DNA from: Bacteroidales bacterium UBA5235
GTDB lineage: Bacteria; Bacteroidota; Bacteroidia; Bacteroidales; VadinHA17
DNA length: 64,000 nt
Reading direction: 5' to 3'
Assembly: GCA_002409145.1 (NCBI GenBank)
Contig: DHUL01000044.1
Coordinates: forward strand, 29,400-93,399
Part shown: in pieces, positions 24,829-45,000 of the stretch
Layout: every line of letters starts with the position of its first letter
Numbering within the stretch: position 1 is the stretch's first letter
The notes under the pieces: model-generated
Told to the model about the DNA's origin: nothing
Database searches by the model: none
What the model saw: only the letters and a program-made list of their open reading frames with translations
Translations under genes and position numbers: made by a program

Positions 24829-24904
24829 TGGTCGGGGTGAGAAGACTCGAACTTCCGGCCCCTACGTCCCGAACGTAGTACGCTACCAACTGCGCTACAC
24901 CCCG
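24829..24904 (-). tRNA. tRNA-Pro (anticodon CGG), CCA encoded
   Basis: Reverse complement CGGGGTG-TA-GCGC-AGTTGGTA-GCGT-A-CTACG-TTCGGGA-CGTAG-GGGCC-GGAAG-TTCGAGT-CTTCT-CACCCCG-A-CCA. 76 nt with a perfect cloverleaf. Confidence 0.93.
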
Positions 24905-32597: not shown

Positions 32598-33461
32598 ATG
32601 AACGGAATCAAGATCGTTGTACTTGCCAAGCAGGTTCCGGATACGCGTAATGTTGGTCCCGATGCCATGAAAGCAGACGGGACGGTCAACAGGAGTGTTC
32701 TGCCTGCCATTTTCAATCCGGAGGACCTGAATGCGCTGGAGCAGGCCCTGAGGATAAAGGAGTGTTATGAAGGGGTGACAGTGACCCTGCTCACGATGGG
32801 TCCGGTCAGGGCTGCGGAGATTATCCGTGAAGGACTGTACCGCGGAGCAGATGACGGGGTACTGCTTACTGACAGGGCTTTTGCAGGTTCTGACACCCTG
32901 GCCACATCATATGCTCTTGCACTGGCAGTGCGCAGGCTGGCGCCCGACCTGGTATTAGGAGGGAGGCAGGCCATTGACGGTGACACCGCACAGGTTGGGC
33001 CGCAGGTCGCAGAAAAGCTGGGATGGCCGCAGGTGACCTATGCCGAAGCGATGCAATTTGAAGGCGAAAAACTAATCATTCGCCGAAGGCTTGAGAGGGG
33101 AGTGGAGACAATAGCAGCCCGGCTGCCACTGGTGGTTACAGTGAACGGAACAGCCCCGGCATGCCGTTACCGTAACGCCAGGCTGGTAATGAAGTACAAG
33201 TATGCGCGTACTGACACTGAACTGCAGGCTGAAAGCTCTGACTACATAGCAGCAAGCCGGCCATTCATCAGGATAACCGAGTGGGGCGTTGACGCCATCG
33301 GAGCCGATCCGGAACATCTCGGGCTCTCAGGGTCACCCACAAAGGTGAAGGAGATAGAAAACGTCATCCTCCAGGCAAAGGAATCGAAGCACCTTACCTC
33401 ATCAAATGCAGACATTGAGTCATTAGTCAGGGAGTTGCTTGAGAATCATACAATTGGTTAA
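32598..33461 (+). CDS. etfB: Electron transfer flavoprotein beta subunit
   Basis: 287 aa from MNGIKIVVLAKQVPD... TMGP, GADDGVLL, DTAQVGPQVAEKLGWPQVTY. Confidence 0.93.
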   Translation: MNGIKIVVLAKQVPDTRNVGPDAMKADGTVNRSVLPAIFNPEDLNALEQALRIKECYEGVTVTLLTMGPVRAAEIIREGLYRGADDGVLLTDRAFAGSDTLATSYALALAVRRLAPDLVLGGRQAIDGDTAQVGPQVAEKLGWPQVTYAEAMQFEGEKLIIRRRLERGVETIAARLPLVVTVNGTAPACRYRNARLVMKYKYARTDTELQAESSDYIAASRPFIRITEWGVDAIGADPEHLGLSGSPTKVKEIENVILQAKESKHLTSSNADIESLVRELLENHTIG

Positions 33462-33484
33462 AAAACGGATAAAACATAGTTACA

Positions 33485-34504
33485 GTGAACAATCTATTCG
33501 TCTTTTGCGAGCTCGATGAAGGCAGGCCTGCCGAAGTCAGCCTCGAGCTGCTCACCAGAGGCAGGTCACTGGCCAATACCCTTGGCTGCCGCCTCGAGGC
33601 AGTGGTCCTCGGCAGCGGGCTCGAAGGCATCGAAAACGAGCTCTTCCCGTACGGCGCAGATGTGGTGCATGTGGCTGATGATCCGGTGCTGGAACACTAC
33701 CGCACCATGCCCTACACCTCAGTGATTACCGGTCTTTTCAGGCAGGAACAGCCCCAGGTGGCATTGATGGGAGCCACATCCACCGGCCGTGACCTCGGAC
33801 CAAGAGTCTCATCGGCAATGCACAGCGGACTGACAGCCGACTGCACCAGCCTCGAGATCGGAGATCACTATGTAAAGAAAACAGATACCACCTATAAAAA
33901 CCTGCTCTACCAGATCAGGCCCGCTTTCGGCGGCAACATAATTGCCACCATAATCAACCCTGACCACAGGCCGCAGATGGCCACCGTCCGCGAAGGGGTG
34001 ATGAAGCGCGAGATCGTAAACAGGAACCACAGGGGAGAACTTAAGAAAATAGATGTAGCAGCCTTCATCAGACCCGAAGATCTTGTCGTCGAAATCATCG
34101 AGCGGCATATGGAGGCGAGGAAGGTGGATATCAAGTCAGCCCAGATCATTGTTTCAGGCGGATACGGAATGGGATCGAAGGAAAATTTTGCCCTCCTCTA
34201 CGAACTTGCCTCTGTGCTTGGCGGTGAGGTGGCGGCTTCAAGAGCTGCAGTTGATGCCGGCTATGCCGGGCATGAACGACAGGTGGGGCAGACCGGGGTG
34301 ACCGTGAGGCCAAAGCTTTATATAGCATGCGGTATTTCAGGGCAGATACAGCATACCGCCGGGATGAACCAGAGCGGGAAAATCATTGCCATTAACAATG
34401 ACCCGATGGCGCCAATCAACAGTATTGCCGACTATGTCATCAACGGAGATGTGGCTGACGTCATTCCGAAGCTAATCAAATACTACAAGGCAAACGCCAG
34501 GTAA
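33485..34504 (+). CDS. etfA: Electron transfer flavoprotein alpha subunit
   Basis: 339 aa (GTG start). ASRAAVDAGY...QVGQTGVTVRPKLYIACGISGQIQHTAGM is the FAD-binding signature. Confidence 0.93.
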   Translation: MNNLFVFCELDEGRPAEVSLELLTRGRSLANTLGCRLEAVVLGSGLEGIENELFPYGADVVHVADDPVLEHYRTMPYTSVITGLFRQEQPQVALMGATSTGRDLGPRVSSAMHSGLTADCTSLEIGDHYVKKTDTTYKNLLYQIRPAFGGNIIATIINPDHRPQMATVREGVMKREIVNRNHRGELKKIDVAAFIRPEDLVVEIIERHMEARKVDIKSAQIIVSGGYGMGSKENFALLYELASVLGGEVAASRAAVDAGYAGHERQVGQTGVTVRPKLYIACGISGQIQHTAGMNQSGKIIAINNDPMAPINSIADYVINGDVADVIPKLIKYYKANAR

Positions 34505-34538
34505 ACCAACAGCAGTCTGAACCTAAAAAGAAACACCA

Positions 34539-36245
34539 ATGGCAAATTTCTATACTGACAATAAGGACCTCAGGTTCCACCTGACACATCCTGTAATGGA
34601 AAAGATCGTCAGGCTGAAGGAGATGGATTACAGGGACAGGGAGCAATTTGACTATGCCCCGCATGACTTCGAGGATGCCATGGACAACTTTGACAGGGTG
34701 CTGGAGATCATTGGAGCCATTTGCGCCGAAGTCATTGGACCGAATGCCGAGGATGTTGACCATGAGGGACCGACGGTCTCTGACGGTCATGTCACCTATG
34801 CCCGTGGCACACGTGAGAACCACGAGGCACTGACCAGGGCAGGGGTGATAGGGATGAATTTCCCGCGAAAGTATGATGGACTGAACTTCCCGATGGTGCC
34901 ATACGTCATGGCTGCCGAACTGGTTTCAAGAGCTGATGCCGGGTTTGCAAACATCTGGGGTTTGCAGGACTGCGGTGAGACTATTCTCGAGTTTGCCACT
35001 GATGAGATAAGGCAGCAATTCCTTCCGAGATTCAACAAGGGTGCAACAGCAGCCATGGATCTTACAGAACCTGATGCCGGTTCTGACTTACAGGCAGTAC
35101 AGCTCAAGGCTCACTTTGACGAATCAAGGGGCACCTGGATGCTTAACGGGGTGAAGCGTTTCATCACCAATGGCGATGCCGAGATAGCTCTCGTCCTTGC
35201 CCGCTCTGAAGAAGGGACGACTGATGGCAGGGGGCTGTCACTCTTCGTTTATGACAGGAATGACGGTGGCGTCATCGTCAGACGGATAGAGAACAAGATG
35301 GGCATAAAAGGTTCGCCCACCTGCGAACTTGTCTTCCGCAATGCCCCTGTAAAACTGGTAGGTGAGCGGAGAATGGGCCTTATCAAGTATGTAATGTCAC
35401 TGATGAACGGAGCACGTCTCGGGGTAGGTGCGCAGTCAGTGGGGATTGCGCAGGCTGCTTACGAAGAAGCCAGAAAATATGCATCAGAGAGGAAACAGTT
35501 TGGAAAGACAATAGACCAGTTCCCGGCTGTCTTTGAGATGCTCACCCTGATGAGGATACGGATTGAGGCAATGCGTACCCTTCTTTATGAAACGGCCCGC
35601 TTTGTTGACACCTACAAGGCATGGTCATTTATTGCAGCAGAGCGGCCTCTGACAAAAGAGGAACGTGAGGACCTGAAAAACAATACCAGGCTGGCAGACA
35701 TCTATACTCCGATGGTAAAGCTGATAAGCAGTGAGTGGTGCAACCGGATAGCATATGACGCGGTCCAGATCCACGGCGGTGCAGGCTTCATAAAGGATTT
35801 CCCTGTTGAGAGGCTTTACCGTGACGCCCGCATTACCTCAATATATGAAGGCACGTCTCAGCTTCAGGTTGTAGCTGCTGTCAGAGGCGTAACAACAGGA
35901 GGATACCTGGCGCAGATCCGTGAATATGAGAAGAATGAAATCAGGCCGGAACTCGATCACCTGAGGAAGGAGCTTATCACCCTGACCGGTGATTTTGAGA
36001 AGAGGGTGGCTCAGGTAACATCTGCAGGCAACAATGAGCTGACAGACTTCCACGCACGCCGCCTGGTGGAGATGGCTGCCAATATTATCATGGGTTACCT
36101 CCTCCTGCATGATGCCCAGCGTGATGCTGTCTATACCGCCTCGGCAGAGCTTTTCATTTCCCATGCTGTATCGGAAAACCTTGTGAGGTCAGAGTATATT
36201 GGCGCTTTCGAAGAAAAAACACTAGGCCTCTATAAGGTGAGCTGA
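34539..36245 (+). CDS. Long-form acyl-CoA dehydrogenase
   Basis: 568 aa. TEPDAGSDL, KRFITNGD, IHGGAGF, IYEGTSQLQ, plus a C-terminal extension. Sits in an etfBA-acd operon. Confidence 0.9.
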   Translation: MANFYTDNKDLRFHLTHPVMEKIVRLKEMDYRDREQFDYAPHDFEDAMDNFDRVLEIIGAICAEVIGPNAEDVDHEGPTVSDGHVTYARGTRENHEALTRAGVIGMNFPRKYDGLNFPMVPYVMAAELVSRADAGFANIWGLQDCGETILEFATDEIRQQFLPRFNKGATAAMDLTEPDAGSDLQAVQLKAHFDESRGTWMLNGVKRFITNGDAEIALVLARSEEGTTDGRGLSLFVYDRNDGGVIVRRIENKMGIKGSPTCELVFRNAPVKLVGERRMGLIKYVMSLMNGARLGVGAQSVGIAQAAYEEARKYASERKQFGKTIDQFPAVFEMLTLMRIRIEAMRTLLYETARFVDTYKAWSFIAAERPLTKEEREDLKNNTRLADIYTPMVKLISSEWCNRIAYDAVQIHGGAGFIKDFPVERLYRDARITSIYEGTSQLQVVAAVRGVTTGGYLAQIREYEKNEIRPELDHLRKELITLTGDFEKRVAQVTSAGNNELTDFHARRLVEMAANIIMGYLLLHDAQRDAVYTASAELFISHAVSENLVRSEYIGAFEEKTLGLYKVS

Positions 36246-36311: not shown

Positions 36312-36325
36312 ATGACAAATATCAA
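36312..36325. promoter_or_regulatory. FNR/CRP-type palindrome ATGACAAATATCAA
   Basis: 12 of 14 identical to TTGACAAAGATCAA at 40998-41011. Fits the TTGAT-N4-ATCAA architecture. Lies upstream of the cytochrome operon promoter box. Confidence 0.45.
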
Positions 36326-36402
36326 TTTCCGGGTTGACAAGAAACACCTGTATATCAGTCCAAATATGCTCTGACCCGGGAAGGGGTGTATTCATATTAC
36401 GG

Positions 36403-36410
36403 TATCTTTG
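36403..36410 (+). promoter_or_regulatory. -7 box TATCTTTG for the cytochrome operon
   Basis: TAnnTTTG lies 24 nt upstream of ATG 36434 and inside the track ORF start region, which supports the shorter start. Confidence 0.5.
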
Positions 36411-36433
36411 TGAAATATATAACAGAAAGCAAG

Positions 36434-36799
36434 ATGATGCGAAAAGCATGGCTTACAAGATTGCTGCCTGCTGCACTGATTGTGGCGGGCGGGCTTTCAA
36501 TATCGTCGTGTGAACAGTATTCCTGGGCTAAGCAGGAAGTACCCCAGGACCTGACGGTGAGCTTCTCGGAAACAGTCCAGCCATTCTGCCAGGGCTGTCA
36601 CTCGGCGTGGACCGTTGACCGTACTTACGACAAACTCTCGGCAAATGTTGACACGGTAACACCCGGATCAAGCAGGGTGCTGTCAATACATTCTTCAATA
36701 ACGGCGTTCGGGTCGCAGATGCTGCAGATTGACACGCTCCTGATCCCGGCAACAGATGTCATAAAACTGTGGGCCTCACAGGGAGCAGAAAAAAATTAG
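36434..36799 (+). CDS. Small monohaem c-type cytochrome lipoprotein
   Basis: 121 aa from MMRKAWLTRLLPAALIVAGGLSISSC (lipobox). A single CXXCH in VQPFCQGCHS. Confidence 0.6.
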   Translation: MMRKAWLTRLLPAALIVAGGLSISSCEQYSWAKQEVPQDLTVSFSETVQPFCQGCHSAWTVDRTYDKLSANVDTVTPGSSRVLSIHSSITAFGSQMLQIDTLLIPATDVIKLWASQGAEKN

Positions 36800-36827
36800 A
36801 ATCCAGGAAACCTTAATAAAGTTAACC

Positions 36828-37664
36828 ATGAAGAAAATTGCCATATCCGTCATTCTGGTCCTGATAACATTTCCAGCATTCTGCCAGGATAACGATGATT
36901 ACCCTGTCAGGGTTTTTGAGACCAGTATATTAATTGACAATCAGACAGTAGCAACACCTTTCAAGGGTTTGCTCGAGTTTGAGATTCATCACCGTTTCGG
37001 AACGCTGAACAATGGTATTGATGACCTCTTCGGGATATGGGCCCCTGCCAACATTCGCCTGGGGCTCAATTACGGAATTACTGACAGGCTGATGATCGGT
37101 ATCGGTACAGCCAAGAACTACAAGGCCCAGGATCTGGCCGTGAAGTTTGCCATACTACAGCAGACGTCGTCTGGATCGGTTCCCGTCTCACTCAGCTACT
37201 ACGGAAATATAGGGATTAACCTGTTAAATCAGAATACATTCGGCCCGGCCCATGACTGGCGTGAGATACACCGTCTCTCATATTTCAACCAGATTCTGGT
37301 GGCACGCCAGTTCGGAACGAAGCTTTCACTTCAGCTTGCTCCCACATTTATCTGGCTCAATGCCGTTGAGGTGGACTACAGGAATGCTCATTACGGCATC
37401 TCAGCCGGTGCAAGGTACAATGTGACCGGCTCACACAGCATTATAGCCGAATATGATCAGCTCTTCAGCAGCCAGAAAGACGAATCGCTGAATGCCAAAC
37501 CGCAGCTGGCACTGGGATGGGAGATAGGAACTGCTACGCATGCATTTCAGATTTTCTTTGCAAATTACAAGGATATCCTCGGACAGTATAACTTTGTATA
37601 CAACCAGAACAGTATCAGTGAAGGAGAGTTCCTGATAGGACTGAATGTTACAGTGCGGTTCTGA
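36828..37664 (+). CDS. Outer-membrane beta-barrel protein (uncharacterised; possibly DUF5777-like)
   Basis: 278 aa. Signal peptide, alternating hydrophobic/polar strands and G/N/D turns throughout. C-terminal ...GLNVTVRF ends in Phe, as in OMP sorting signals. Confidence 0.6.
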   Translation: MKKIAISVILVLITFPAFCQDNDDYPVRVFETSILIDNQTVATPFKGLLEFEIHHRFGTLNNGIDDLFGIWAPANIRLGLNYGITDRLMIGIGTAKNYKAQDLAVKFAILQQTSSGSVPVSLSYYGNIGINLLNQNTFGPAHDWREIHRLSYFNQILVARQFGTKLSLQLAPTFIWLNAVEVDYRNAHYGISAGARYNVTGSHSIIAEYDQLFSSQKDESLNAKPQLALGWEIGTATHAFQIFFANYKDILGQYNFVYNQNSISEGEFLIGLNVTVRF

Positions 37665-37672
37665 CAGATAAA

Positions 37673-38683
37673 ATGATTATGGCCATCAGAAAGCTTCTGC
37701 TTCTACTTTTTATTTTGTCTCTCCTGGCAACACCGGAGGCAACAGGCCAGGAGCCTGACACGGTAAAATCGGTCCGCGGAGCCTCAAACAGCCTTTACGC
37801 AGAGGACAATGAGAACAACTGCCTGGTATGCCATGGCAGGCTTGTCTACTCCCTTACCGACACCACTACGGGAACCACAAGAAAACAGCTCATGTCTGAG
37901 CATAACCTGGTTGTTCCTGACATGTTCTACAATTCTGTCCACTGGAGCTTCAGCTGCCTTGACTGTCATTCCGAAGGATTCAAGACATTTCCCCATCCCC
38001 TGGAAACCCGGTTTGAGAGCTCCTGGGGGTGCATAGACTGTCATGGCTATGACCCGAACTACGCCCGGTACAAGTTTGAGGAGATAGATGCCGAGTATCA
38101 GCGCAGCATACATTACACTGCAACTGAAGGACTGATATCATGCTGGAAATGCCATGACCCTCACTATTACAATCCGCTTGCCAGGCAGGCCAGGGGTGGA
38201 CGGGAATATATCATCCGCTCAAATGAGATGTGTCTCCGTTGCCACGGTAACTCTGACGTGATGGGTCTGATAAATGACGAGAATGTCAGTATCGTATTGC
38301 CGAAGCATGAATGGCTTCCCGATGTGGACCGTCACATGGAGGCTGTCAGGTGCATAGACTGCCATACAAGGATGAATGACAGTGTCCTCGTGGCTCATGA
38401 GGTGATGCCGGCTGACAGTGCTGTCAGGGGATGTGCCGAATGTCACAGTCAGAACTCGATACTGATGGGCACACTTTATAAATATGTTTCTCAGGAAACC
38501 CGTGTTGAGAAGGGTTTTCTCAACGGAGTGATCCTGCGAAATGAATCGTATGTGATTGGTGCCAACCGCAGCAAATTCATCTCCTTCACAGGTATGTTCC
38601 TTATTGGCATGACAATTGCAATAGCCATGGTACACACACTTTTCAGGATCATTATCAAAAGGAAGCAGGTAGTTCATGAGTAA
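37673..38683 (+). CDS. Heptahaem c-type cytochrome with C-terminal membrane anchor
   Basis: 336 aa with signal peptide. Seven CXXCH (CLVCH, CLDCH, CIDCH, CWKCH, CLRCH, CIDCH, CAECH). C-terminal TM helix FISFTGMFLIGMTIAIAMVHTLF. Confidence 0.85.
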   Translation: MIMAIRKLLLLLFILSLLATPEATGQEPDTVKSVRGASNSLYAEDNENNCLVCHGRLVYSLTDTTTGTTRKQLMSEHNLVVPDMFYNSVHWSFSCLDCHSEGFKTFPHPLETRFESSWGCIDCHGYDPNYARYKFEEIDAEYQRSIHYTATEGLISCWKCHDPHYYNPLARQARGGREYIIRSNEMCLRCHGNSDVMGLINDENVSIVLPKHEWLPDVDRHMEAVRCIDCHTRMNDSVLVAHEVMPADSAVRGCAECHSQNSILMGTLYKYVSQETRVEKGFLNGVILRNESYVIGANRSKFISFTGMFLIGMTIAIAMVHTLFRIIIKRKQVVHE

Positions 38684-39296
38684 GAATTTTTACCATTATC
38701 CGGTCTGGGTCAGGCTGTGGCATCTAACCAATGCCATCCTGTGCCTTTTCCTTATAGTGACAGGATTCAGCATGCTTTATTCTGATCCTGATCGTGCCCT
38801 CGTTGTGAAATTTCAGCGGGCAGTCTCCATTCACAATGTGTGCGGAGTGCTGCTTACAATAAGCTATACCGCTTTCCTGATCGGTAATATTTTTACCGAA
38901 AACGGCAGGCATTACCTTGTTGCCGTCAAGGGCATGGCTGAGAGGCTCTGGAAGCAGGCCCGCTATTATGGATTCGGTTATTTCAAAGGTGAGGAGGCTC
39001 CTTTTCCCGTCACAGGCACCCGTAAATTCAATCCGTTGCAGCAGGTCTCATATGTGGGAGTGATGTATTTTATCCTGCCAATGCTGTTCGTTACGGGATG
39101 GGCCCTGATGTTCCCGGAGTTCATTCTGAAGAGATTCCTGGGATTCAGCGGCGTATTCCTTACAGACCAGTTCCATGTCATCCTTGGATTCCTGGTTGTT
39201 GTTTTTCTGTGTATTCACCTCTATGTCAGCACAATGGGCAAATCACCCCTGAGCAATTTCAGAAGCATCATCACCGGCTGGCAGGAGAGTCATTAA
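38676..39296 (+). CDS. Dihaem b-type cytochrome membrane subunit (HydC/PhsC/FdnI-like, PF01292-type)
   Basis: 206 aa, four TM helices with conserved His (RLWHL, SIHNV, QFHVI, CIHLY). 8-nt overlap with the heptahaem gene. Confidence 0.75.
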   Translation: MSKNFYHYPVWVRLWHLTNAILCLFLIVTGFSMLYSDPDRALVVKFQRAVSIHNVCGVLLTISYTAFLIGNIFTENGRHYLVAVKGMAERLWKQARYYGFGYFKGEEAPFPVTGTRKFNPLQQVSYVGVMYFILPMLFVTGWALMFPEFILKRFLGFSGVFLTDQFHVILGFLVVVFLCIHLYVSTMGKSPLSNFRSIITGWQESH

Positions 39297-39325
39297 TAAT
39301 TTGAGTATAATTAAAATCAAGGTTT

Positions 39326-39742
39326 ATGAAGAGAACAATTAAAACAATTTCCGTTGTGCTGGCAACAGCCCTGTTCGCCTTTGTTTCGGTAACGGCAAGT
39401 GCCCAGCAGAAGAAGGGAGAACCGTGGGTTATCCCTGCAGAGTACAAGAAGATGGCCAATCCCGTCGCCAAGGACGATGCAACAGTCAAGGCCGGGCAGG
39501 TCTCCTATACCAGGAACTGTGCTTCATGCCATGGCAAGACAGGTCTGGGTGACGGCCCGAAGGGCAGGATGTGCAAGACATTCCCGGGCGACTTCTCAGG
39601 CGCTGCCTTCCAGGGATTCACTGATGGAGAAATGTTTTACCAGACAAAGATGGGAAGAGGCGAGATGCCGGCATATGACAAGAAGGTTCCTGACAATGAG
39701 ATCTGGAGTATAGTCAACTACATGAGAACGCTGAAAAAGTAG
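39326..39742 (+). CDS. Class I monohaem cytochrome c
   Basis: 138 aa with signal peptide. NCASCHGKTGLGDGP plus a distal GEMPAY Met ligand region. Confidence 0.85.
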   Translation: MKRTIKTISVVLATALFAFVSVTASAQQKKGEPWVIPAEYKKMANPVAKDDATVKAGQVSYTRNCASCHGKTGLGDGPKGRMCKTFPGDFSGAAFQGFTDGEMFYQTKMGRGEMPAYDKKVPDNEIWSIVNYMRTLKK

Positions 39743-39756
39743 ATTTCAATAGTAAA

Positions 39757-39795
39757 TAAAAAAAGCTGTCCGCGTTGGCGGGCAGCTTTTTTTTT
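39757..39795. terminator. Bidirectional rho-independent terminator between convergent cytochrome genes
   Basis: A6-AGCTGTCCGC-GTTG-GCGGGCAGCT-T9. Confidence 0.85.
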
Positions 39796-39810
39796 GTGCT
39801 TTTGTAATCA

Positions 39811-40884
39811 CTATTTTGCCGGATCAGCGAATCCCAGGGTCTCCATTGTTGCAATTGAGTTGTCAAGCAGAGTCCTGATGTAACCGGGGTTGTGAAGGCC
39901 GTTGCTGCGGTCTTCCTTTACGGTGTTGTAGTTCAGGTAAGCCAGGACGGCGTTGGCCTTGAAGGTGCCTGCCTTCGCCAGGCCTGTTGCAGGATTGTAT
40001 ACGCCTGCTTCTGTCAGCTGTGCTTCCAGTCGTCCCATTTTGTCTTCGATGTCAGCTGTCAGGGCGTTGACCTTACCGTCGATTTCCGTTGCGTTCGTAT
40101 GGCATGTTGTGCATCCTGTTTTAAGCAGCGTCTCTGTTCCGTGGCTGTCATACATTAATCCCATGTTGTGTCCGCCTGCCAGGTATCCGTAAGGGGTTGA
40201 CATGTGGCAGGTGACGCATCCGTTGGCAGTTGAGTGAGGATTATTTGTGGGATGAGCCTCTCCCGGGAGTTCAAACGGGGTCTTGCCGAGGATGAGGTTG
40301 GTGTTCGGTCCGTGATGCGGTCCGATACGGGTTCCGTTGGAGGCAATTGTAAAATCAGCTCCGTTAACCGTTGGTGCCGGATTGACAGACCGTGACTGAT
40401 GACAGAAGGCACACTGGTTGCTGCTTCCTTTATCCCAGATGACATCTGCTCCGGCGTACTTGACCTCCAGTGTCTGAGCGCCCGGATTGGTCAGGGCCCA
40501 GTCAGCATCTGAGTAGGTGTCGTGAATATTGTGGCATGTGGCGCAGTTGATCTGCATCGGGTTCGAGGGAACAGAGATGTTGGCTGTTGAACCTTCAGCC
40601 AGATACTCGAGGAATCCCTGGCTGGTGTGACACTGCACACATCCGGCCCTGTTGGCATAGGCTGCATTACCCCCCCTGGCATGAGTTGACTCACTCCATT
40701 GTGCAGAGAATGCTGACATAGGGCTGCTGGAATTGTGGCATTCGGCACAACCGAGTGTTGTTCCGGGATCACCCTTGTCGCCCTTGGGGCCATCCTCACC
40801 TACCGGACCCATAGGGCCTTCACAGGAGGCCATTATAAGACCTGCTGATACAACAAGTGCAGCAAATTTCAGATTTTTTTTCAT
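39811..40884 (-). CDS. Hexahaem c-type cytochrome lipoprotein with collagen-like Gly-X-Y linker
   Basis: 358 aa from MKKNLKFAALVVSAGLIMASC (ATG 40884). Seven GXY triplets follow the lipobox Cys. Six CXXCH (CAECH, CVQCH, CATCH, CAFCH, CVTCH, CTTCH). C-terminal EDRSNGLHNPGYIRTLL helix as in NrfA/HAO-superfamily proteins. Confidence 0.85.
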   Translation of the reverse strand: MKKNLKFAALVVSAGLIMASCEGPMGPVGEDGPKGDKGDPGTTLGCAECHNSSSPMSAFSAQWSESTHARGGNAAYANRAGCVQCHTSQGFLEYLAEGSTANISVPSNPMQINCATCHNIHDTYSDADWALTNPGAQTLEVKYAGADVIWDKGSSNQCAFCHQSRSVNPAPTVNGADFTIASNGTRIGPHHGPNTNLILGKTPFELPGEAHPTNNPHSTANGCVTCHMSTPYGYLAGGHNMGLMYDSHGTETLLKTGCTTCHTNATEIDGKVNALTADIEDKMGRLEAQLTEAGVYNPATGLAKAGTFKANAVLAYLNYNTVKEDRSNGLHNPGYIRTLLDNSIATMETLGFADPAK

Positions 40885-40997
40885 ATAGGTTTTTATTTCG
40901 AATTTTTCCGATGAAAGGTAACAAGACCGTTGATTGGTCAGTACGCCGGGGCGTTGATATTTCAATCACAATGGATTGATATGTGCAGTCAGTCAGA

Positions 40998-41011
40998 TTG
41001 ACAAAGATCAA
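40998..41011. promoter_or_regulatory. FNR/CRP-type palindrome TTGACAAAGATCAA in the divergent intergenic region
   Basis: One mismatch to TTGAT-N4-ATCAA. Lies between the hexahaem gene (-) and crp/fnr (+). Extra TTGAT half-sites at 40930, 40953 and 40975, and TCAATC-N6-GATTGA at 40962-40979. Confidence 0.55.
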
Positions 41012-41087
41012 ATGCCGCTATGATATATGTCATAATTGCCTGACCCTAAAGAAATGACCAGGTAAATTTACATCAAAATCTAACCGG

Positions 41088-41783
41088 ATGTATACAGATA
41101 ACAAGATAATCAGTTGTGAATTCTGTTCCAGGTGCTGGTCGAACTTCAAAACCCTCTCTGCAGAGGAATTTGAACTCATCAACAAAAACAGGTATGAAGC
41201 CAGCTTCAAGCCTTCTGAGATAATCATCAAGCAGGGCTCGCCCTCTTCAAATGCAATATTCCTCCTTTCAGGACTGGCCAAGGTATATATGGAAGGGTAT
41301 GCCGGGAAGAATCTCATTCTCAACCTGGCAGGACCAAAAACGCTGCTTGCGGGACCGGGAGTTCATGTGAACTCAAGATATTGTTATTCCGTGGCGGCCA
41401 TTACCCATGTGCAGGCCTGCTTCATCAATTTTGACATCATCAGGAATGTGATATCAGCCAATCCCGGCTTCGCGGAAGGCTTTATCGAGGACCTCAGCGA
41501 AAAAGCACTGAAAATTCAGCAGAAGATGCTTAACCTGACCCAGAAAAAGATGCACGGAAGGCTCGCCGAAGCATTGCTTTATTTTTCAGACTCCGTCTTC
41601 CAATCTGATGAATTTGAGATGGTGCTCTCACGCCAGGAACTTGGTGAGATGACCAATATGGCCAAGGAGAGCGTTGTCAGAATTATTGGTGAGTTTGAAA
41701 ACGAGAATATTATTCATGCCACTCCCAGATCTGTCAGGATACTCAATAGAGAAAAACTGCTGGTAATTTCCGAAAAGGGATAG
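41088..41783 (+). CDS. Crp/Fnr-family transcriptional regulator with N-terminal Cys cluster
   Basis: 231 aa. N-terminal C-x2-C-x2-C (SCEFCSRCW), a cNMP-binding-like barrel and a C-terminal HTH (RQELGEMTNMAKESVVRIIGEFE). Confidence 0.85.
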   Translation: MYTDNKIISCEFCSRCWSNFKTLSAEEFELINKNRYEASFKPSEIIIKQGSPSSNAIFLLSGLAKVYMEGYAGKNLILNLAGPKTLLAGPGVHVNSRYCYSVAAITHVQACFINFDIIRNVISANPGFAEGFIEDLSEKALKIQQKMLNLTQKKMHGRLAEALLYFSDSVFQSDEFEMVLSRQELGEMTNMAKESVVRIIGEFENENIIHATPRSVRILNREKLLVISEKG

Positions 41784-41803
41784 ATTTGTATTAAATTGAT
41801 TTC

Positions 41804-44800
41804 ATGAAAGCATTACGGTTCCTCATTTCCCCTGCAATGATGGGTATACTCTTCATTGCTCTTGCAGCATCAATGGCTGCAGCGACATTCATTGAGAACG
41901 ATTTCGGCCAGGAGGCTTCCCGGGCGGCAGTTTACAACACCTGGTGGTTTGAGATGCTCTTTCTGGTGCTGGCCCTGAACCTGGTTGGCCAGATTGTCAC
42001 CTTCAGGCTGTGGCGCAGGGGAAAGCTTACTGTTCTCCTGTTTCATGCTGCATTTATCATCATGGTGGCTGGCGCTGCAATAACCAGGTACACAGGCTAT
42101 GACGGTATGCTGCACATCAGGGAGGGCAGCTCATCTGATGTCACATTCTCCTCAGGCAACACAATTACATTCGAGCTCACAGGGAGTGACGGCACCCTTC
42201 TGAACAGTCACTCAGCACCACTGAACATTTCAGGAGGCCGCCACGGGAAATACAGGAAGAGTCTTGAAACCGACGACGGAAAAGCCACCCTTACCTTCGA
42301 ACGGTATCTTGCCGGCGCTGTGAAAACGGTAGAGGAGACTCAGGGAGGCAGGCCGATGATATCACTGCTCTTCACACCTGATATGGTCACCAGCGAAACC
42401 GTAGTCCTGGCTCCGGGAGAGTCGGCAATGATAGGCGATATGACCGCCGGCTTCGAAACCCCGGCTGACATTTCTGTTACAACTGACGGGATCTCATTCT
42501 TTATCAGGTCATCAGTAGGACTGAGATCAACCGTAATGAAGGAGATGAAGTCGGAAGAATATCCCGCTGACACCCTGGTGCCGCTGATGAAAGGAACTGT
42601 TTACACCGCAGGCAGCTACAGGATAATGCCACAGATGATGACCATGAGCGGCACAATGGTGCCATCCGTGACTTCGGCAGGACAGAGATCCGGAGGTGCG
42701 CTTGAGTTCACGCTGAAGGGTGATGGCTATCAGGAAAAAATCTGGCTGTGGGATGACGGTGATGAAGAGAGGTCAGTATGGAAGGGTGATGCCGGCAGGC
42801 TGACTGCCAGGGTGAGTTACGGTGCCAGTGGAAAGCAACTCCCTTTCAGCCTGAGACTTGACGACTTTGTCGTGGAGCGGTACCCGGGTTCCAACAGCCC
42901 GTCGGGATTCAGGAGCAGGGTAACTCTCATCGATCCGGGACACGGTATCGAAATGCCTTATGATATTTACATGAACCATATCCTGAAATACCGCGGGTAC
43001 CGGTTCTACCAGTCGTCATATGATAATGACGAGCTTGGTACTGTTTTGTCTGTCAACCATGACCCGGCGGGGATGTACACCACCTATACCGGGTATGGGT
43101 TGCTGTTCCTGTTTATAATACTCTCACTTCTTAACAGGAAATCATTCTTCCGCACTGTAGCTCCCGGGCACTGGAGCTCGAATTACCGCAAACCTGTTGC
43201 TGCCATAGCATTGCTCCTGATGACTTCCCTGTCACCTCTGAAGAGCCAGGAACTGGTAATAGAGCGAAAAGCAGCAGATAGTTTTGGTGCAGTGCTGGCA
43301 CAGGATCAGAAAGGGCGGACGAAACCGCTTTATACCATCAGCAGTGACATCCTCCGGAAGGTGTCAAGGGAAAATAGTTTTGAGGGACTGTCACCAATGC
43401 AGGTATTCCTTGGCTGTTCGCTTGATTTCTACCACTGGCAGAACGTACCGCTCATAAAGGTTTCAAATGAGGAACTCCGCCGCGAGCTCAACCTGAAGGG
43501 CGAGAAGGCTGCCTTTTCGGAAATCGTAAAGATGGGCGAAGGTGGCGGTTACCTGCTTGGCTCCATGGTTGACAAAGCCTATGCAAAGAGTGTGACTGAC
43601 CGTACGAAGTTTGACAAGGAGGTAATTAAGGTCGACGAGCGGGTCAACATATGCTATATGATGTCAAGAGGAGATTTCATGAGGATATTTCCCCTTCGGG
43701 ACAGCACTGATCACTGGGGCAGTGCGGAGGATGCTGCAAGGCACGGCATAGGAAAGGAGGATTCCCTCTTTGTGGTGAGCGTGGTTCCGATGTGGGCTCA
43801 GTCTGTGACATTAGTGGGGGGCTCATCGGCACCTCCGGCAGACTATATCACCGCACTCACCAACTACCAGCACCGTTATGCCGGGTATGAACTGCCTGCA
43901 GAGAGCAAGGTAAAGGCTGAACTCTTCTATTATCGGGCAAGGATATTTGAAAGGCTTTTCCCGTGGTATGCTACCGTAGGACTTATAATGATAATTACAA
44001 TCATTACCATGATTATCAGGGGCAGGGAGCTCAGGGGACCAGTCCTCCGGGTGCTTGCCGGCCTGGTTGCTGCCGGATTCCTGTTCCATACCCTCGGTCT
44101 TGGCATCAGATGGTATATCTCGGGCCATTCGCCCATGAGCAACGGTTATGAATCAATGCTCTTCATCTCGTGGGTGACATTGCTTGCCGGGCTGATCTTC
44201 AGCAGGAGGTCGCTTCTTACCCTTGCAGCCACCTCTGTCCTTGGCGGACTGACACTTATGGTGGCGCACCTGAGCTTCATGGACCCGGAGATCACCAACC
44301 TGGTTCCCGTATTGCGTTCTTACTGGCTCACCCTGCATGTTTCCGTTATCACCGGCAGCTACGGTTTCCTGGGGCTGGGTGCCATCCTGGGGATTGTCGT
44401 CCTTGTGATGATGCTTTTCATCCATGAGGGTAACAGGGAGAGGATCAGTGCCGTAATTGATGAACTTACGGTAATCAATTACAGAACATTGACCCTGGGG
44501 CTTTATTTTCTGACCATTGGCACTTTCCTCGGGGCCATCTGGGCTAATGAGTCGTGGGGCCGTTACTGGGGCTGGGACCCGAAAGAGACCTGGTCACTTA
44601 TTACCATAATTGTATACACCCTGGTGACTCATTCCAGAATGATGCCGGGAATGAAAGATACGTACACTTTCAACCTGCTTTCACTTTTTGCATTTTCATC
44701 TGTGCTGATGACCTATTTCGGTGTTAACTATTACCTGTCAGGGCTGCACTCTTATGCCGCTGGCGATGCAGTGCCGGTGCCGGCATTTGTATATGTGGCT

Positions 44801-44869
44801 GCAGGAGTGCTCATCAGCCTGGCAGTTGCAGCAGGATTTGCATACCGGAAAGCGTTGAAGCGGCAGTAG
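41804..44869 (+). CDS. ccsBA: Fused cytochrome c biogenesis protein CcsBA (System II, ResB-like plus CcsA)
   Basis: 1021 aa. N-terminal ResB-like half with a large periplasmic loop. C-terminal CcsA half with the WWD motif WGRYWGWDPKETW and conserved His. Starts 20 nt after crp/fnr. Confidence 0.9.
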   Translation: MKALRFLISPAMMGILFIALAASMAAATFIENDFGQEASRAAVYNTWWFEMLFLVLALNLVGQIVTFRLWRRGKLTVLLFHAAFIIMVAGAAITRYTGYDGMLHIREGSSSDVTFSSGNTITFELTGSDGTLLNSHSAPLNISGGRHGKYRKSLETDDGKATLTFERYLAGAVKTVEETQGGRPMISLLFTPDMVTSETVVLAPGESAMIGDMTAGFETPADISVTTDGISFFIRSSVGLRSTVMKEMKSEEYPADTLVPLMKGTVYTAGSYRIMPQMMTMSGTMVPSVTSAGQRSGGALEFTLKGDGYQEKIWLWDDGDEERSVWKGDAGRLTARVSYGASGKQLPFSLRLDDFVVERYPGSNSPSGFRSRVTLIDPGHGIEMPYDIYMNHILKYRGYRFYQSSYDNDELGTVLSVNHDPAGMYTTYTGYGLLFLFIILSLLNRKSFFRTVAPGHWSSNYRKPVAAIALLLMTSLSPLKSQELVIERKAADSFGAVLAQDQKGRTKPLYTISSDILRKVSRENSFEGLSPMQVFLGCSLDFYHWQNVPLIKVSNEELRRELNLKGEKAAFSEIVKMGEGGGYLLGSMVDKAYAKSVTDRTKFDKEVIKVDERVNICYMMSRGDFMRIFPLRDSTDHWGSAEDAARHGIGKEDSLFVVSVVPMWAQSVTLVGGSSAPPADYITALTNYQHRYAGYELPAESKVKAELFYYRARIFERLFPWYATVGLIMIITIITMIIRGRELRGPVLRVLAGLVAAGFLFHTLGLGIRWYISGHSPMSNGYESMLFISWVTLLAGLIFSRRSLLTLAATSVLGGLTLMVAHLSFMDPEITNLVPVLRSYWLTLHVSVITGSYGFLGLGAILGIVVLVMMLFIHEGNRERISAVIDELTVINYRTLTLGLYFLTIGTFLGAIWANESWGRYWGWDPKETWSLITIIVYTLVTHSRMMPGMKDTYTFNLLSLFAFSSVLMTYFGVNYYLSGLHSYAAGDAVPVPAFVYVAAGVLISLAVAAGFAYRKALKRQ

Positions 44870-44876
44870 GCTGTTT

Positions 44877-44916
44877 AAAAAAAAGCTGCCCCGGGTATAA
44901 ACCAGGGGCAGCTTTT
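44877..44916. terminator. Bidirectional rho-independent terminator
   Basis: A8-GCTGCCCC...GGGGCAGC-TTTT: a 9-bp GC-rich stem between ccsBA (+) and tRNA-His (-). Confidence 0.8.
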
Positions 44917-44925
44917 CATTATCAG

Positions 44926-45000
44926 GGTGGAAGACCGGGTTCGAACCGGCGACCTCCAGATCCACAATCTGGCGCTCTAACCAACTGAGCTACAACCACC
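44926..45000 (-). tRNA. tRNA-His (anticodon GTG) with encoded G-1, no encoded CCA
   Basis: Reverse complement G-GTGGTTG-TA-GCTC-AGTTGGTTA-GAGC-G-CCAGA-TTGTGGA-TCTGG-AGGTC-GCCGG-TTCGAAC-CCGGT-CTTCCAC-C. D, anticodon and T arms are regular. The acceptor stem has U5-U68 and U6-U67 mismatches. Confidence 0.85.

Follow-up and report, generated by a model that had tools for sequence, protein, structure and literature searches.

The closest described counterpart of the inner-membrane part of the system examined here is CbcBA (Cbc5; GSU0594/GSU0593) of Geobacter sulfurreducens, a menaquinol oxidoreductase needed near -0.21 V. As described by Joshi, Chan and Bond, CbcBA is made of a seven-haem cytochrome whose C-terminal transmembrane (TM) anchor supplies a His, and of a separate four-TM dihaem b cytochrome of a kind usually annotated as 'thiosulfate reductase-like'; cbcA is followed by cbcB and then by a terminator. 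GSU0597 and GSU3489, the other two genes of the Geobacter operon, are named only 'hypothetical' in the papers. Joshi et al. also reported homologous cbcBA clusters in Bacteroidetes (Prolixibacter, Marinilabiliales, Labilibaculum) and proposed cbcBA as a marker of extracellular electron transfer. Here we describe a cytochrome locus found in a 64,000-nt stretch of Bacteroidales bacterium UBA5235 (contig DHUL01000044.1, positions 29,400 to 93,399), hereafter the window: its genes and their families, its conservation, gene fusions in relatives and the operator sites common to its units. The locus holds eight genes, named A to H, for a monohaem lipoprotein (A), a small barrel of outer-membrane (OM) type (B), a heptahaem cytochrome c (C), a dihaem cytochrome b (D), a class I cytochrome c (E), a hexahaem lipoprotein (F), a Crp/Fnr-family regulator (G) and a cytochrome c synthase (H). 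Our best reading, to which we give about an even chance, is that they form an anaerobically induced, FNR-regulated cytochrome island in which electrons flow outward from the menaquinone pool to the outer membrane.

The products of C and D match the architecture of CbcBA as published, and the inner-membrane module is thus of a known kind. All seven CXXCH motifs of C are invariant in 72 homologues, which share seven further conserved His residues, sufficient for bis-His ligation of each haem. As in CbcBA, the heptahaem subunit ends in a single C-terminal TM helix (residues ~302-328) with a conserved His inside it (His321, kept in 71 of the 72), and a four-TM PhsC-like dihaem b subunit is encoded next door, its gene overlapping C by 8 nt. 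D has four hydrophobic segments, and His16, His53, His167 and His181 are each kept in 75 of 75 homologues. The gene order is likewise cbcA, cbcB and then a terminator. The differences are that D has four invariant His against the three described for CbcB, that control here is of the Crp/Fnr type and in Geobacter of the sigma-54/BccR type, and that genes for a DUF5777 barrel and for two monohaem cytochromes belong to the same operon as the C-D pair.

Domain scans of C returned only generic multihaem matches, among them the Pfam MtrC/MtrF domain II/IV at 39 bits (cut-off 30). Membership in the MtrA/DmsE family can be set aside, as C reaches 33.9 bits against a cut-off of 192 and, unlike that family, is anchored in the inner membrane. 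In searches of the Protein Data Bank (PDB), the only relative of C was 28pb_A, from an entry titled 'Cytochrome c' (278 aa, E 6e-7), with the common stretch WLP..DLH..C..CHT. D matches PF01292 at 83 bits, and its closest NCBIfam model is PhsC, at 179.4 bits under a cut-off of 204. A PhsABC thiosulfate reductase was rejected on this score and because neither a PhsA molybdopterin subunit nor a PhsB iron-sulfur subunit is encoded in the locus. Sequence and profile searches of the PDB found no relative of D, and hence no solved structure for a b cytochrome of this type.

To examine conservation, one genome per species was scanned with a barrel profile, which yielded 80 loci. All of them come from metagenome-assembled genomes (MAGs) of Bacteroidales, Rikenellaceae or Marinilabiliaceae, with barrel identities between 54% and 94%. 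B, C and D stand side by side wherever the locus is not cut off by the end of a contig, an A-type monohaem lipoprotein gene lies directly upstream of B in 79 loci, and E, a convergent F, G and H usually come after D. An arrangement of this kind is far beyond chance. The initial annotation had joined the genes into one path with a regulator of its own, and that they form one conserved and co-regulated unit is borne out by co-conservation in the 80 species-level Bacteroidales genomes and by the FNR boxes that the genes share. We therefore have high confidence that the unit is real; our confidence in its function, that of a variant of the porin-cytochrome type of envelope electron conduit, is moderate. 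The same locus, identical in sequence, is present in several metagenome assemblies, and its host is an uncultured member of the Bacteroidales.

Three extra genes are found between D and E in 30 of the 80 loci; the window carries the short form, without them. In two examples (L013:10538-13708; L068:10506-13677) they encode an NrfC-like 4Fe-4S protein with a twin-arginine (Tat) signal, an NrfD-like membrane protein and a ~300-aa protein with a C-terminal TM helix. This NrfC/NrfD-like trio would form a second quinone module, and its Tat 4Fe-4S and NrfD-like genes recall NrfCD, PsrBC and alternative complex III; unlike in those systems, however, such genes are missing from the window and there is no molybdopterin-like subunit. 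Other relatives harbor HmuY-like genes, one with a type IX secretion system (T9SS) tail, and a TonB-dependent receptor gene between E and F (L061:11128-16094, also L075 and L080). A haem-uptake set inside a cytochrome cluster fits a haem-auxotrophic host. A further observation concerns the locus type of L043-L050, in which a 694-aa protein is encoded upstream of the cytochromes, between etfBA-like genes and an acyl-CoA dehydrogenase gene (L044:3529-5613). Besides a membrane part that resembles Nitrate_red_gam, it has one 4Fe-4S and two CCG domains; the window holds no counterpart of it. Its domains resemble those of an ETF:menaquinone oxidoreductase, a possible electron input to the quinone pool.

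What appears to be new in this locus, judging from sequence comparisons, is the trio formed by A, B and E, which is conserved across Bacteroidota well past the arrangement described above. The DUF5777 family to which B belongs has 1,690 representatives at 50% identity, and includes a subfamily of ~400-aa proteins whose barrel carries a class I cytochrome c at its N-terminus. Such fusions make up at least 68 clusters at 90% identity; their identity to the query P0345 goes down to 40%, and one member comes from a Lutibacter MAG. Seven distant DUF5777 loci of Bacteroidota were inspected, and in all seven the barrel gene is followed by one or two genes for A-like lipoproteins, whose products have a lipobox, then the pattern (V/I)SF..D(I/V)QP(I/F)F...C..CH, and a C-terminal W(I).(Q/E)GA.NN. 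In L088-L090, where barrel and cytochrome are separate, the gene for an E-like protein directly adjoins or overlaps that of the barrel, and in three other loci the E-like cytochrome is fused to the barrel. The barrels of the distant trio loci are 26-34% identical to B, and the cytochromes beside or fused to distant DUF5777 barrels are 29-43% identical to E. E itself matches PF13442 and PF00034 and has an invariant Met114, as expected for a His/Met class I cytochrome. Because of the gene fusion and of the recurrent adjacency in otherwise unrelated neighbourhoods, the barrel is likely to work physically with c-type cytochromes, and we regard both features as strong evidence for such a partnership.

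Some distant loci have neighbours or variants of their own. Three trio loci lie beside genes for T9SS-secreted copper oxidases (L087:9567-13656, L088:6631-10347, L089:3670-5382). Two of the loci have a lysyl-oxidase-like protein accompanied by a Fer4_5/TPR protein; the third has a multicopper oxidase. Duplicated A-like lipoproteins with CxxxCH (CVQACH, CVQGCH) in place of CxxCH were also detected (L089:6882-7340, L090:6912-7379).

The system that the trio recalls in design is Cyc2 of Fe(II) oxidisers, in which a single-haem cytochrome is likewise combined with an OM barrel and the relay in the periplasm is a class I cytochrome; relatives of the window barrel even carry a literal cytochrome-barrel fusion. 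The likeness seen is one of architecture. In the window the parts are encoded separately, A and B each by its own gene; the domain fused in relatives is a full class I cytochrome of ~110 aa, neither A-like nor a short N-terminal haem peptide; and B has a predicted ~12 strands (model pLDDT 55) and 258 mature residues, compared with ~16 strands for Cyc2.

B was assigned to Pfam DUF5777 (PF19089, 'membrane bound beta barrel') over its full length, at 241 bits against a cut-off of 23.1 (E 1.5e-71). A literature search on the name 'DUF5777' found no paper, and sequence and profile searches of the PDB found no relative of B. AlphaFold2 (AF2) models were made from alignments of 15 sequences for B and 18 for F; their confidence scores (pLDDT 55 and 52, respectively) make only the strand count and the C-terminal helices usable. 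The B model has 12 strands, with short turns on one side and long loops on the other, and the insertions seen in DUF5777 proteins map to a predicted long loop. A Foldseek search with this model retrieved only ordinary OM barrels, including the 12- to 14-strand KdgM, OMPLA and OmpG, all weakly (E>0.006). OM placement of B leans on a signal peptide, a C-terminal Phe, 12 predicted strands and structural neighbours that are OM barrels only. Tentatively, then, B is a small OM-type barrel of ~12 strands, and both its size and its topology are to be read with the caution that the model demands. Gln20 (36885-36887) is the first residue past the predicted signal cleavage site, and a Gln is found there in 90% of 252 DUF5777 proteins. 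Secreted proteins of Bacteroidota often begin with Gln, which is cyclised to pyroglutamate.

Sixteen residues of B are 85-99% conserved among 252 diverse members of the family: H55, R56, F57, G58, N75, R77, D102, K106, Q112, R149, Y152, N178, E232, H238, F240 and Q241. On sequence grounds, such a pattern suggests a site for binding or for a cofactor rather than a passive pore. In concept, a barrel with a periplasmic cytochrome and a lipoprotein multihaem cytochrome is shared with MtrCAB, PioAB and Geobacter Pcc. In contrast to the porins of those systems, which have 20-28 strands, B is far too small for a decahaem cytochrome, and the locus has no MtrB-like porin. An MtrAB/Pcc-type sheath was therefore rejected: B, with 278 aa, is too small for a multihaem cytochrome, and C is anchored in the inner membrane. 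Hence, the idea of a barrel conduit put forward in the initial annotation stands as far as the OM-type barrel goes, but a low-confidence model with ~12 strands leaves no room for sheathing of the MtrB/Pcc kind.

Regulation was examined by scoring matches to the FNR-box consensus TTGAT-N4-ATCAA. The palindrome upstream of A has its counterpart, at the same offset and with two mismatches at most, in 64 of 78 related loci, compared with 20% of random windows; the one between F and G recurs with no more than one mismatch in 45 of 50, compared with 2.4%. Matches over the window as a whole are at chance level (41 vs 42), and only positional conservation across loci is meaningful. A scan for sigma-70 promoters was uninformative (15 found, 10.5 expected). 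G matches PF00027 and PF13545, and the residues of an FNR-like Cys cluster, C10, C13, C16 and C111, are kept in 57, 57, 40 and 59 of 59 homologues, respectively. Its fold, its Cys set and the operators argue for an FNR-type regulator with predicted cluster binding, and the A-E operon appears to belong with F and G to a single regulon of FNR type.

H was identified by TIGR03144 (197.6 bits, cut-off 187.6), PF05140 and PF01578, together with a W-rich motif, WGRYWGWDPKETW, in its translation; by these signatures it is a system II cytochrome c synthase, CcsBA, in which ResB is fused to CcsB/CcsA. It may be the sole cytochrome c maturation system of the host. The maturation machinery that had been described as dedicated to this locus is indeed present, 20 nt after G, but need not be dedicated. 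The etfB, etfA and acyl-CoA dehydrogenase genes lie directly upstream, as had been noted. Because an FNR box stands between acd and A, etfBA-acd is probably a separate transcription unit, and its adjacency may reflect synteny rather than co-transcription.

The features of the locus are collected in Table 1. Recomputation reproduced the layout given in the initial annotation: eight genes, five of them tightly packed on the + strand, a total of 15 CXXCH motifs and a terminator between E and F. The gaps are exactly as given (A-B 28, B-C 8, C-D -8, D-E 29 nt), and G and H are 20 nt apart. F, for which 358 aa had been claimed, turned out to have 357, and position 36312, taken as the start of the locus, is the first base of the conserved palindrome upstream of A, with no gene starting there. 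Profile searches assigned families to B, D, E, G and H.

Table 1. Features of the cytochrome locus and its upstream context. Coordinates are positions in the 64,000-nt window; open reading frames, coordinates and motif counts were recomputed.
Feature	Position	Strand	Description
etfB-etfA and long acyl-CoA dehydrogenase (acd)	32598-36245	+	Upstream context, syntenic in relatives
FNR-box-like palindrome ATGACAAATATCAA	36312-36325		~122 nt upstream of A; positional conservation in relatives
A	36434-36799	+	121-aa monohaem lipoprotein, lipobox ISSC, one CQGCH
B	36828-37664	+	278-aa DUF5777 barrel, signal peptide, end ...VTVRF (C-terminal Phe)
C	37673-38683	+	336 aa, CbcA-like heptahaem cytochrome c, seven CXXCH, C-terminal TM helix
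D	38676-39296	+	206 aa, CbcB-like PhsC-type four-TM dihaem cytochrome b
E	39326-39742	+	138-aa periplasmic class I monohaem cytochrome c, CASCH
Bidirectional intrinsic terminator	39758-39793		Between convergent E and F; 16-bp stem, 7 GC pairs, flanked by A-run and T-run
F	39811-40884	-	357-aa hexahaem lipoprotein, six CXXCH, lipobox MASC
FNR-box palindrome TTGACAAAGATCAA	40998-41011		Divergent F-G promoter region; positional conservation in relatives
G	41088-41783	+	Crp/Fnr-family regulator
H	41804-44869	+	1021-aa fused ResB-CcsB/CcsA (CcsBA)

Two tRNA genes, both on the - strand, are located at 44926-44999 and 24832-24904, the first of them directly after ccsBA and beside a small terminator-like hairpin (44889-44907). 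An Rfam scan of the window found nothing but these two tRNAs.

The initial annotation had listed the part classes needed for an electron path from quinone to outer membrane, and these are present, namely an inner-membrane quinol module, a class I cytochrome c, an OM-type barrel and two cytochrome lipoproteins; what does not stand is the novelty of the quinol module, which is of the CbcBA-like kind already known. We propose the following order of events, in which cellular locations, electron-transfer order, direction and substrate are all inferred. D, with two b haems, and C, with seven bis-His c haems and a His-bearing TM anchor, would act in the inner membrane as a menaquinol:cytochrome c oxidoreductase of CbcBA type. 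C would hand electrons to the soluble class I cytochrome E, which would dock on the periplasmic mouth of barrel B. B would act with the PccH/FoxE-like monohaem lipoprotein A, so that A, B and E make up one OM redox module, and F, on its collagen-like stalk and in the same FNR regulon, would be the multihaem end of the chain. H would mature all five of the c-type cytochromes, and G would turn the set on, probably under anoxia. The net function is most likely the disposal of menaquinol electrons, to an acceptor that would be extracellular or OM-permeant: Fe(III) chelates or oxides, humic-type quinones, or a partner cell. Either a redox-active solute would pass through B to the cytochromes at its mouth, or a bound cofactor would bridge the barrel. 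Given how narrow the barrel is, a cytochrome is unlikely to be threaded through it, and bridging of the outer membrane would probably fall to the substrate or to a bound cofactor. Outward flow is favoured by the known function of CbcBA, by FNR control, by the His-type A and by the nearby ETF and acyl-CoA dehydrogenase genes; the presence in some relatives of an ETF:quinone-type iron-sulfur oxidoreductase near the latter genes was also counted in its favour.

Several points weigh against this proposal. The AF2 models are poor (hence the tentative size and topology of the barrel), and a barrel of ~12 strands, if correctly predicted, has no room for a folded cytochrome. With one monohaem protein on either side of the membrane, the distance would be too great for direct tunnelling, which leaves the trans-membrane step without a demonstrated mechanism. 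Any placement of A and F in a given membrane leaflet would be conjecture. E, as a His/Met-ligated cytochrome, is probably of high potential, which is awkward in a low-potential chain to Fe(III) oxides. F, with features of the NrfA superfamily and two spare conserved His residues, could be a catalytic enzyme. Lastly, the likeness to CbcA and CbcB is by published description, not by alignment with the Geobacter sequences.

The possibility of a catalytic F deserves closer scrutiny. Domain-model and motif scans of the locus proteins detected neither molybdopterin, copper, sirohaem or Rieske domains nor a CXXCK motif. The statement of the initial annotation that no terminal reductase is evident is therefore correct for classical enzymes; F, however, has features of the NrfA/ONR (octahaem nitrite reductase) superfamily, and a catalytic role is possible. 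Members of the F family share an invariant SCEGP lipobox region, 3-9 collagen-like G-X-Y triplets, six CXXCH motifs and eight conserved His outside the motifs. The F profile aligns with ONR (3.5e-5) and NrfA (4.6e-5) in the region of its final two haems and of the C-terminal helices, and by this C-terminal half F appears to belong to the NrfA/ONR superfamily. F also matches PF22113 (MtrC/MtrF domain II/IV) at 34.8 bits (cut-off 30). The way in which the last two haems are arranged, and long C-terminal helices, are common to F and to NrfA, ONR and OcwA, and OcwA is a terminal reductase of the cell surface. It differs from them in being a much shorter lipoprotein (357 aa) with six CXXCH, no CXXCK and a collagen-like stalk. 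Canonical NrfA was rejected for F: there is no CXXCK, the Pfam Cytochrom_C552 score of the window protein is 16.4 bits (threshold 24.1), and only the C-terminal half aligns. A further likeness is to MtrC and OmcA, as F is a multihaem lipoprotein, with putative surface exposure. The triplets of the F family imply, by sequence, a trimeric stalk bearing a hexahaem head. In the window protein, six G-X-Y triplets follow straight after the lipid-modified Cys (residues 21-41), and the NCBI titles some homologues 'collagen-like protein'.

These data admit the explanation that the locus serves conventional periplasmic respiration, which we consider fairly unlikely. F would be a non-canonical NrfA/ONR enzyme for a small soluble substrate (nitrite, hydroxylamine, NO, a sulfur oxyanion or peroxide), B would be the OM channel of that substrate, and CbcBA, joined by NrfCD in the long forms, would feed the enzyme via E and A. 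The profile alignments just described speak for it, as does one F homologue that passes the Cytochrom_C552 threshold with 31.3 bits, in contrast to the window F. The Foldseek neighbours of F (ONR, OcwA, NrfA and MccA only, thus all of the NrfA family) agree, although they are weak (E>0.015, model pLDDT 52). Addition of an NrfC/NrfD-like quinol dehydrogenase in 30 of the 80 relatives is comparable to E. coli NrfABCD, and a barrel as narrow as predicted would suit the passage of a solute. Eight conserved His for six haems might leave some for catalysis, but they also suffice for six bis-His haems, and neither CXXCK nor any other recognisable active-site signature is found. Moreover, an enzyme in the periplasm leaves unexplained both the collagen-like stalk of F and the fusion of class I cytochrome and barrel in many taxa that lack F.

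A second explanation keeps the same hardware and reverses the flow, and we regard it as unlikely. In a manner similar to Cyc2, FoxE or PccH, A, B and E would oxidise Fe(II), some other external reductant or a partner cell, and a reversed CbcBA would reduce menaquinone, which would pass electrons to fumarate reductase or another sink. The monohaem lipoprotein is one source of this idea. A fits no Pfam or NCBIfam family, and its relatives reach Pfam PccH and PSCyt1 only below threshold. When the A-family profile was compared with solved structures, matches were obtained to the C-terminal haem domain of hydrazine synthase alpha (5c2v, 1.4e-9), to Geobacter PccH (4rlr, 6.6e-6) and to FoxE (5mab, 9.8e-6). 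FoxE is an Fe(II) oxidase, and PccH is needed for cathodic electron uptake. With PccH (GSU3274), FoxE of Rhodobacter ferrooxidans and the PSCyt1-like domain of hydrazine synthase alpha, A has in common the pattern (V/I)SF..D(I/V).P(I/F)F...C..CH ... W(I).(Q/E)GA. In contrast to them, it is a lipoprotein always paired with a barrel, and it has a His where they have a distal Met.

This last difference bears on the direction of flow. In the distant A-like proteins a presumed distal Met (SNMP) occupies the position, whereas the A proteins of Bacteroidales have a His that is probably the distal ligand, and the exchange hints at a shift to lower potential, as would befit an outlet. The distal-position Met is found in other Bacteroidota that are presumably aerobic (such as Lutibacter and Saprospiraceae), where it would fit donation to oxidases. 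Two further arguments for inward flow are the fused cytochrome-barrel architecture, which by analogy parallels Cyc2, and the reverse operation of CbcBA that has been proposed in the literature for Seep-SRB2. However, the reduction of menaquinone from Fe(II) via a His/Met cytochrome is uphill, and FNR-type control and the adjacent ETF and acyl-CoA dehydrogenase genes are better suited to electron disposal.

It is highly unlikely, in our view, that A and B have no part in respiration and serve instead in iron or haem acquisition, for instance as a ferric reductase or a haem channel, for a haem-auxotrophic host, next to cytochromes whose supply they would assist. The thought is suggested by the haem-uptake genes (HmuY-like, TonB-dependent receptor) that separate E from F in L061, L075 and L080, by a TonB-dependent receptor gene upstream of a fused barrel in L086, and by the adjoining CcsBA. 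Yet TonB/HmuY genes occur in a minority of loci only, the adjacency of B, C and D is invariant, with C and D overlapping, and it is an electron-transfer cytochrome c that is fused to the barrel in many clusters. Phylogenetic inertia, by which the genes would be neighbours without any joint action, is scarcely credible: all 80 loci do come from one order, and etfBA-acd, probably a separate operon, is syntenic too, but synteny holds down to 54% barrel identity though the flanking genes differ, the genes overlap or are closely spaced, conserved FNR boxes are common to both units, and the trio recurs in unrelated contexts, also in fused form, so that the evidence from fusions and regulon effectively refutes it.

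Returning to outward electron flow, one extension of it can be formulated, which we hold as a tentative possibility. A, B and E, separate or fused, may represent an unrecognised class of minimal OM redox conduit, unrelated in sequence to Cyc2, MtrB or Pcc, widespread in Bacteroidota and wired to CbcBA in anaerobic Bacteroidales. Within such a conduit, the near-invariant His and Arg residues of the barrel might bind a bridging haem or metal. The presence of CbcBA in Bacteroidetes was already known. In the literature that we searched, we found no description of the trio of DUF5777 and cytochromes, of its fusions, of its link with CbcBA, of a hexahaem lipoprotein that is stalked and NrfA-like, or of the FNR regulon; a search for papers on the genetics of extracellular electron transfer in Bacteroidales, Prolixibacter and Rikenellaceae found nothing specific.

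Sediments, digesters and guts are rich in Bacteroidales, which are usually regarded as fermenters. The locus pairs CbcBA, a known marker of low-potential extracellular respiration, with an undescribed OM module of cytochromes and barrel, and it is a strong candidate for electron exchange of these fermenters with their surroundings. It also provides a concrete, testable set of genes for the contact of Bacteroidales with iron minerals, electrodes and syntrophic partners. If the function of the module were shown, a protein family that counts more than 1,600 clusters and has no literature would gain an annotation. If the minimal conduit proves true, it would be a third, independently evolved way of moving electrons over the outer membrane, beside Mtr/Pcc and Cyc2, and 'fermentative' bacteria of the Rikenellaceae and Marinilabiliaceae type would gain a true extracellular respiration.

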